A stretch of 64,000 nt of DNA from Escherichia coli O127:H6 str. E2348/69 (GCF_000026545.1 NC_011601.1); one strand, 5' to 3'; shown: positions 181 through 1,099, counted from the stretch's first letter. Numbers and translations: made by a program. Notes: generated by a model not told the origin, from the letters alone.

Positions 181-1099
181 ATATTATCACTTACTGGCGG
201 CTCATACTGAGCTGGTTAATGCTGTGCACACACAAACAAGCAATTCCATTTGTAATGTGCCTCCCTGGCAGTTTCATCCGGACCCCGGACGAAAGTAAAA
301 ATGCATATGAGTTGCACTAAAAAAGTGACTCACATTGTTCCGTTATAATGCCTGAAGTAGATCACAGAATATATCTTCAGGGATCGCATATCTATTAAGT
401 TACTCACTCTTTTCTATTTATGACATGCGCGTGTTTGTATAAATGTAAATGTGAGTCCTTGTTCCACTCTCGTACAGCATCGCTGGTCATACGCGAACAC
501 GTACAAACAGCAATGGTGAGGCGGCATCAAGAGCAGGGATCCGTCATTTATGCAAGCATTTTACCCCAAAAACCTTTTATTTATAAGGGTCATTGCGAAT
601 TATCTGATGCAAAGTTATGTTATGTTAGGCAAAGTAATCTTCTATTATTAATAAGCACAACAAAACCTTTTTGAATATTAAATAATAATTAATTAGCATC
701 ATCCCCATTCATTAATTCCGCTTAACAATAGTTTCACGCCTTGCCCCCATTGTGACACCTCGGAAATCATCACGCTGTTAAACTCTCCGTAATACGGAAA
801 TATCATCATCGCGATTCAGTAGTGAATTCTTAAACGAGGCATTTTCACACAATTATCTTACAGATAAAAAAACCACACCTGCAATTAAGAAACAGAACAA
901 TTCACTACATAACATTGCTTATTAAGCATACACACCTAATTATTTTGCCATTATTAAGTTATTAACAGCACAATCGAGCCATCCCCTCTGGCAAAATCTT
1001 ATTCTGCAGACCTTCAAAACACCGTCCTGGGGGAGTACATTGTTCTAAGCTGACTTCCACGGCAGGGAGTGGCGATAACAGCAAAAAAGGTCAAGATTC

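Follow-up and report, generated by a model that had tools for sequence, protein, structure and literature searches.

The stretch of DNA analysed here, called the window, is a 64,000-nucleotide segment from Escherichia coli O127:H6 str. E2348/69 (GCF_000026545.1, NC_011601.1), to which it is 100 per cent identical. Reverse translation of nucleotides 1–180 yields the N-terminus of the LysR-type regulator LrhA, whose start codon occupies 178–180 on the minus strand, and the ATG of alaA, which is followed by yfbR, lies at 1100 on the plus strand. Both start positions agree with the RefSeq annotation of E2348/69, and the divergent spacer between them is therefore exactly 181–1099, or 919 bp, within which RefSeq places zero features in either E2348/69 or K-12 MG1655.

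An earlier note, made from the sequence, had drawn attention to a ∼920-bp AT-rich divergent region between lrhA and alaA at these positions and considered it unusually long for E. coli. Both remarks hold up well. The GC content of the spacer is 0.387 (38.7 per cent), whereas the window as a whole has 0.508 and, in its first 50 kb, coding sequence has 0.522 and the remaining intergenic DNA 0.442. The spacer also ranks longest among the 42 positive intergenic gaps in those 50 kb, where the median gap is 82 bp and the runner-up 662 bp. The runner-up (window 49297–49958, 28.9 per cent GC) separates a fimbrial subunit gene of the yfc operon from sixA, and the yfcV–sixA spacer has been marked as H-NS-associated (Shimada et al., PMC3946193).

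The spacers of E2348/69 and K-12 align free of gaps with 28 substitutions, and these are unevenly spread: divergence is 1.1 per cent in 181–551 (four substitutions), 5.5 per cent in 613–1012 (twenty-two), and zero in 1013–1099. The earlier note had entertained the outcome that nothing beyond promoter elements would be conserved; the leader of lrhA, at 1.1 per cent compared with 5.5 per cent in the middle of the spacer, indicates otherwise. Among 27 Enterobacteriaceae species four conserved blocks stand out (181–255, 551–610, 671–730, and 985–1099), and the remainder of the spacer is of poor identity, 0.23–0.5. The features assigned to the region are collected in Table 1.

Table 1. Features of the lrhA–alaA spacer and its borders in window coordinates, with strand and the basis of each assignment.
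Feature	Position	Strand	Basis or remark
5′ end of the lrhA coding sequence (LysR-type regulator LrhA)	1–180	−	Translation and RefSeq coding sequence
lrhA 5′ untranslated leader, 371 nt, from the distal start site 551	181–551	−	Published length and primer match
UhpU pairing site, mRNA CGCCAGU, −19 to −13	193–199	−	lrhA-M1 mutation; 7-nt extent inferred
Speculative 15-codon upstream ORF, MELLVCVCTALTSSV, in the lrhA leader	202–249	−	ORF listing and comparison
Candidate ArcZ seed complement, CCAGGGA, −88	262–268	−	Prediction only
Two further lrhA 5′ ends, −158 and −179	338, 359	−	SMRT-Cappable-seq supplement
84-codon ORF, ATG start, 84 aa	420–674	+	Antisense to lrhA leader and promoter; chance ORF
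Distal lrhA sigma-70 promoter: −35 TTATAA (586–581), 17 bp, −10 TAAAAT (563–558)	558–586	−	Hexamers checked by script
Conserved block directly upstream of the lrhA −35, TATTGCGAATTATCTGAT-like	590–612		Mean identity 0.63–0.71, 27 species
Conserved AT-rich block, ATTAAT-N5-CTTAACA at 711–729	671–730		Mean identity 0.60–0.67, 27 species
Fast-evolving AT-rich spacer between promoter regions	731–984		Identity 0.24–0.50 across Enterobacteriaceae
alaA sigma-70 promoter: TTCAAA (1013–1018), 17 bp, TACATT (1036–1041)	1013–1041	+	Conservation and published start
alaA 5′ leader, 53 nt; Shine–Dalgarno AAGG at 1087–1090	1047–1099	+	Start from PMC6131387 and sequence
Conserved hairpin ACUUCC-ACGGCA-GGGAGU at the 5′ end of the alaA mRNA	1053–1070	+	31-species alignment, RNAalifold

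Within lrhA itself, the alanine run near the N-terminus of the protein (window 88–96, minus strand, codons 29–31) differs in length between strains, reading FAAAV in E2348/69 and FAAAAAAV in K-12. The difference is a 9-bp in-frame indel in a GCN repeat, which accounts for the annotation of the gene at 930 nt versus 939 nt.

The lrhA promoters and the leader targeted by small RNAs

The 5′ UTR of lrhA has been described as an "unusually long 371 nt" (Melamed et al., PMC10578931). The lrhA part of the fusion primer SM079, ATAAATGACGGATCCCTGCT, is identical to the minus strand of the window from 551 downward, and because it matches from that base the +1 can be placed at 551 and the leader at 181–551, which makes up 40 per cent of the spacer. 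A start site far upstream of the gene is what a long leader bound by sRNAs and Hfq calls for, and the −35/−10 pair at 558–586 fits it, the start lying 7 nt past the −10. The block CTTATAA...TAAGAT/TAAAAT is kept in the 27 Enterobacteriaceae species at 330–455 nt upstream of lrhA, and no convincing alignment of it was obtained outside the Enterobacteriaceae.

Two shorter transcripts are reported as well. SMRT-Cappable-seq gives b2289 starts at NC_000913.3 2406799 and 2406820 on the reverse strand (PMC6131387), which convert to 338 and 359 when the lrhA ATG at 2406641 is equated with window 180. These are the only lrhA rows in that table, from which the start at 551 (−371) is missing, and the Cappable-seq supplement (PMC4782308) has no rows at the spacer coordinates. 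There are thus at least three reported 5′ ends for lrhA, and the datasets appear to differ over distal versus proximal promoter use, the RIL-seq study (PMC10578931) working from −371; all of the start-site and leader data belong to K-12 rather than to E2348/69. Other hexamers, CTGCCA-16-TATGAT, were predicted for lrhA by Shimada et al. (PMC3946193). A consensus scan for promoters and terminators found sites no commoner than in shuffled sequence and missed both the lrhA and the alaA promoter, each of which matches consensus at four of six positions per hexamer.

Several lines of published evidence make the leader a target of small RNAs. RIL-seq chimeras join the lrhA 5′ UTR to UhpU, ArcZ, RprA, and McaS, the first three of these sRNAs each repress an lrhA-lacZ translational fusion, and repression by UhpU was lost and then regained through compensatory mutations (PMC10578931). 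Comparison of the lrhA-M1 gBlock, GCCGCGAGT, with the wild type, GCCGCCAGT, identifies the change as C-to-G at −16, or window 196; the evidence for direct pairing is the compensatory experiment of that study (PMC10578931), and the mutated base has been located here. The site sits directly upstream of the weak lrhA Shine–Dalgarno sequence and is intact in E2348/69. Our own windowed hybridisation scan placed a UhpU duplex at 217–196 and returned several near-equal candidates for each sRNA, so that the UhpU site alone is fixed, by way of the published mutant sequence. Predicting duplexes over the full length of the leader for ArcZ, RprA, McaS, and UhpU yielded pairings that were riddled with loops and carried no meaning, and these were discarded.

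The placement of ArcZ pairing appears to have a history of its own. ArcZ represses the hexA, pecT, and pigU orthologues of lrhA by pairing ∼40–85 nt ahead of their start codons. A 9–10 nt stretch, AACACCAGG(G), that is perfectly complementary to the ArcZ seed lies between −28 and −51 in 34 of the 37 species compared outside the Enterobacteriaceae set, its spacing to the lrhA/hexA/pecT start codon nearly fixed across the loci (L027–L071), in agreement with the published hexA and pecT sites. The genera carrying hexA, pecT, or pigU differ in this respect from Escherichia, where, as in most Enterobacteriaceae, the proximal site is degenerate (UUAACCAGCU) and the best complement, also the longest exact one in the Escherichia leader, is the 7-mer CCAGGGA at −88. 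The pattern suggests that ArcZ control may have been rewired or relocated in Escherichia and most Enterobacteriaceae. Control by UhpU is reported to have been acquired in Escherichia (PMC12704781).

The leader is also reported to be bound by Hfq in vivo in K-12, from co-immunoprecipitation and Northern blot, with Hfq-bound fragments of 150 and 350 nt coming from the lrhA leader region and a ∼1.5-kb lrhA mRNA that goes up in an hfq mutant (Bilusic et al., PMC4152368). Its predicted fold of −111.4 kcal/mol is somewhat better than that of shuffled sequences (z = −2.44). These fragments might be read as an independent Hfq-binding sRNA gene beyond mere pieces of a leader, since "ig-lrhA-alaA" was at first listed among intergenic RNAs, with Hfq-bound forms of 150 and 350 nt (PMC4152368), and the conserved distal promoter and leader, together with the fold, could suit such a gene. 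This is improbable, however. A probe upstream detects an RNA of ∼1.5 kb and a probe in the lrhA coding sequence one of ∼1.25 kb, and the authors themselves assign the fragments to the lrhA 5′ UTR (PMC4152368); moreover, no intrinsic terminator-like site was found in 181–551 and no Rfam family matched, and in the RIL-seq work the leader is treated as a target of sRNAs and not as an sRNA (PMC10578931).

The leader, then, is best taken as the 5′ UTR of lrhA, and it contains one further element of note. An upstream ORF of 15 codons (249–202, minus strand) has GGGAGG 10 nt ahead of its ATG, and its start context, ATGGAATTG, recurs in 13 relatives, among which the length (9–28 aa) and sequence of the peptide vary; of the papers listed by a literature search on lrhA and upstream or small ORFs, none treats lrhA. 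That ribosomes translate this ORF and that it contributes to sRNA control is a speculative idea, and a weaker second possibility after the alaA leader element treated below. The leader also contains two GGA motifs, and a CsrA site was considered there and found no support.

The 84-codon frame and the middle of the spacer

The ORF at 420–674 on the plus strand lies antisense to the distal lrhA leader (420–551) and the lrhA promoter and runs ∼90 bp beyond. The earlier note had regarded it as doubtful for want of a clear ribosome-binding site, and that doubt was justified, given that the frame fails every coding test applied. There is no Shine–Dalgarno sequence ahead of its ATG at 420, where the preceding sequence is ctcttttctattt, and when the 919 bp were shuffled 1000 times with dinucleotide content preserved, 21 per cent of the shuffles held an ORF of at least 84 codons. 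The frame stops in E. albertii and either stops or is frameshifted in one divergent Escherichia genome, and beyond the genus the alignable part is confined to the portion that overlaps the promoter. Substitutions fall evenly on the three codon positions (18/16/15 and 12/12/9), the third-position excess being absent, and although K-12 keeps the frame open, four of its five differences (3/1/1 by codon position) alter the amino acid. The N-terminal two-thirds, 420–550, is the least conserved stretch of the entire spacer.

A search of 5.8 billion proteins returned 12 matches to the ORF, ten of them named as E. coli or Shigella hypothetical proteins and two nameless, and none of the 12 carried a Pfam domain. 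A real small protein specific to Escherichia, transcribed antisense to the lrhA leader, would account for the open frame in both E2348/69 and K-12 and for the hypothetical proteins called in some GenBank E. coli and Shigella records, one cluster of which is found on 411 contigs. It is nonetheless highly improbable in view of the broken frames, the even codon positions, the poor conservation, and the shuffled controls, as well as matches of which none is assigned outside Escherichia/Shigella; nor was any plus-strand promoter-like site found upstream of the ORF, and RefSeq annotates nothing there in either strain. The ORF is a chance reading frame and not a gene, which explains why some records name a hypothetical protein and RefSeq names none. 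The locus tags of NZ_LT827011.1 skip from BQ9544_RS13320 (lrhA) to RS13330 (alaA), and the absent RS13325 suggests a gene call withdrawn from the spacer, probably that of the 84-codon ORF, a hint that might otherwise be counted on the side of the small protein.

Further from lrhA, the spacer is best known for the proteins that bind it. RNA polymerase holoenzyme gives several peaks on the "920 bp-long lrhA-alaA" spacer, which also holds many sites for transcription factors and was put in one class with csgD-csgB and nanC-fimB, long spacers that several factors bind (Shimada et al., PMC3946193). When transposons insert into the spacer, lrhA is overexpressed in E. coli and pigU in Serratia (PMC10810281). 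Binding of OmpR and of Lrp has been reported in the spacer and binding of CpxR at the lrhA promoter. Work by Peterson in 2006 is said to concern regulation of lrhA by Rcs, and work by Kim in 2010 reportedly concerns regulation of alaA by Lrp.

Conservation points to two places where specific factors may act. The block at 590–612 is a probable activator or UP-type site. The block at 671–730, which lies −120 to −180 from the lrhA start site with unconserved sequence on either side, is a candidate transcription-factor site. A TTAA-N6-TTAA dyad at 712–725 falls inside its ATTAAT-N5-CTTAACA motif. This motif, at 711–729, is conserved in Enterobacteriaceae ∼160–180 bp upstream of the distal lrhA start, and its dyad is compatible with the T-N11-A box of LysR-type regulators, which would make it a candidate site of LrhA autoregulation. 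A scan of window 1–2600 on both strands with the Rfam 15 covariance models, at E-values up to 1, gave no match, and such repeats as the spacer holds are short, AT-rich, and no more than chance would give, with no terminal inverted repeats.

The arrangement is widespread. A scan for AlaA with one genome per species returned 80 loci, and in 63 Enterobacterales species the divergent neighbour upstream of alaA is an orthologue of lrhA; in the Vibrionaceae and Pasteurellaceae alaA is found without lrhA nearby. The spacer measures 740–1100 bp in 57 of these 63 species, the outliers being Pectobacterium and Brenneria (∼500 bp), Dickeya (1.6 kb), and Budvicia (2.5 kb), and its GC content is below that of the alaA coding sequence in all 63, the deficit being 2–21 points and, with a single exception, 7 or more. 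Because the arrangement and the low GC recur in 63 species, the length and AT-richness of the spacer go beyond chance, and the long AT-rich spacer is an old, maintained trait of the order and no accident of E. coli. Of 5426 complete E. coli genomes, 5425 carry it as a single copy, which among the matches listed invariably sits between lrhA and alaA. The unusual length, and a GC content of 0.387 where other intergenic DNA has 0.442, might raise the suspicion of a leftover of mobile or horizontally acquired DNA, a xenogeneic insert silenced by H-NS, but this is effectively refuted by synteny across species of several Enterobacterales families, with neither a patchy distribution nor notable repeats nor ORFs with homologues.

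The alaA promoter and a conserved hairpin in the alaA leader

The alaA promoter is conserved across the Enterobacterales. A −10 matching TA[CGA]A[TG]T precedes alaA in 62 of the 66 loci fetched from this order, a range that reaches from Escherichia to Proteus and Arsenophonus. The hexamer is TACATT without variation in 48 loci, 47 have TTCAAA at a distance of 17 bp upstream, and the sequence between the hexamers is variable. The start of the alaA-yfbR operon at 2407508 (SMRT-Cappable-seq, PMC6131387) converts to window 1047, which is 6 nt past the −10; both this distance and the 17-bp spacing fit a sigma-70 promoter, for which 5–9 nt and 16–18 bp are expected. A different promoter, TTAAGA-17-TATAAC, was predicted for alaA by SELEX (Shimada et al., PMC3946193). 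It corresponds to window 885–913 and is unconserved, and in E2348/69 the −10 reads CATAAC, the change from TATAAC of K-12 at position 908 weakening it.

The mRNA that begins at 1047 opens with a conserved hairpin, which a minimum free energy fold stretches to 1049–1073. In an alignment of 31 species 90.9 per cent of cells pair, compared with 77 per cent in shuffles, and the covariation score is 0.388 against 0.163, a value equalled by 0 of 500 shuffles; controls slid along the alignment are 37–62 per cent paired. The UUCC/GGAA core of the stem and the near-invariant ACGGCA loop range from Escherichia as far as Serratia and Erwinia, and in Yersinia and Pectobacterium the loop takes variant forms. 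A U-G pair occurs in ten of the sequences, and lineage-specific extensions of the stem covary; these two properties speak for structure in the RNA more than for an operator in the DNA. The hairpin is not a terminator, since no U-run follows the stem.

The hairpin matches no Rfam family and no description of it was found, and it may be the sole undescribed item of the region. It lies at the extreme 5′ end of the message and may act as an mRNA-stabilising stem-loop or as a binding site. It is doubtful, though conceivable, that it goes beyond a passive stabilising stem-loop and represents an undescribed cis-regulatory RNA element, a protein or sRNA site that would set alanine transaminase levels.

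A shared control region for lrhA and alaA

There is strong reason to regard the spacer as a shared divergent control region for lrhA and alaA in four parts, in keeping with the complex regulatory region that the earlier note had proposed for lrhA: a published, sRNA-targeted leader of 371 nt, promoters on both sides, and a multi-factor spacer are all present. In this reading of the region, the sigma-70 promoter at 558–586 on the minus strand starts lrhA at 551 and produces the 371-nt leader, a published transcript mapped here onto the window. Hfq, UhpU, ArcZ, and RprA bind this leader and lower the synthesis of LrhA (McaS forms chimeras with it too), UhpU pairing at −19 to −13 where it adjoins the ribosome-binding site, and less LrhA in turn means more FlhDC and greater motility. 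Transcripts with the cap-selected 5′ ends at 338 and 359 have shorter leaders that lack the distal half.

The AT-rich DNA at ∼590–1010 would serve as a landing zone for Lrp, CpxR, OmpR, and RNA polymerase holoenzyme, at positions that we infer, with the conserved stretches 590–612 and 671–730 as the likely specific sites and the rest as fast-evolving spacer. On the far side, alaA-yfbR is transcribed from TTCAAA-17-TACATT with a start at 1047, and the 53-nt leader opens with the hairpin, which may stabilise the mRNA or serve as a binding site. The ORF at 420–674 is no more than a chance frame opposite the lrhA leader and promoter.

The closest comparison is the lrhA 5′ UTR and promoter region of K-12, which is the same locus, with leader, UhpU site, and hexamers identical or nearly so (Bilusic 2014; Melamed 2023). 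E2348/69 differs from it by strain-level polymorphism only. Lehnen in 2002 and Peterson in 2006 are said to have worked on this same K-12 region. The leaders of rpoS, flhDC, and csgD likewise run to several hundred nucleotides ahead of global regulators and are bound by Hfq, with several sRNAs, ArcZ and RprA included, repressing or activating them. They differ from the lrhA leader, which holds additional internal start sites, and rpoS differs further in its activating, anti-antisense mechanism, whereas all sRNAs tested on lrhA repress it; we know of no rpoS-like activating, anti-antisense mechanism for lrhA. The orthologues hexA, pecT, and pigU of Photorhabdus, Xenorhabdus, Dickeya, Pectobacterium, and Serratia are also divergent from alaA across a long AT-rich spacer.

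The long leader, its sRNA regulators, its dependence on Hfq, and the multi-factor spacer are all published already. What is added here is the placement of these features on the coordinates of an EPEC strain, a clear negative for the 84-codon ORF, and a conserved hairpin in the alaA leader for which no description was found. LrhA stands at the top of an E. coli hierarchy that takes in motility, fimbriae, RpoS, and virulence, and its orthologues HexA, PecT, and PigU govern virulence, secondary metabolism, and CRISPR-Cas in other Enterobacterales. Because LrhA and its orthologues control these hierarchies, the region that controls lrhA is biologically important.
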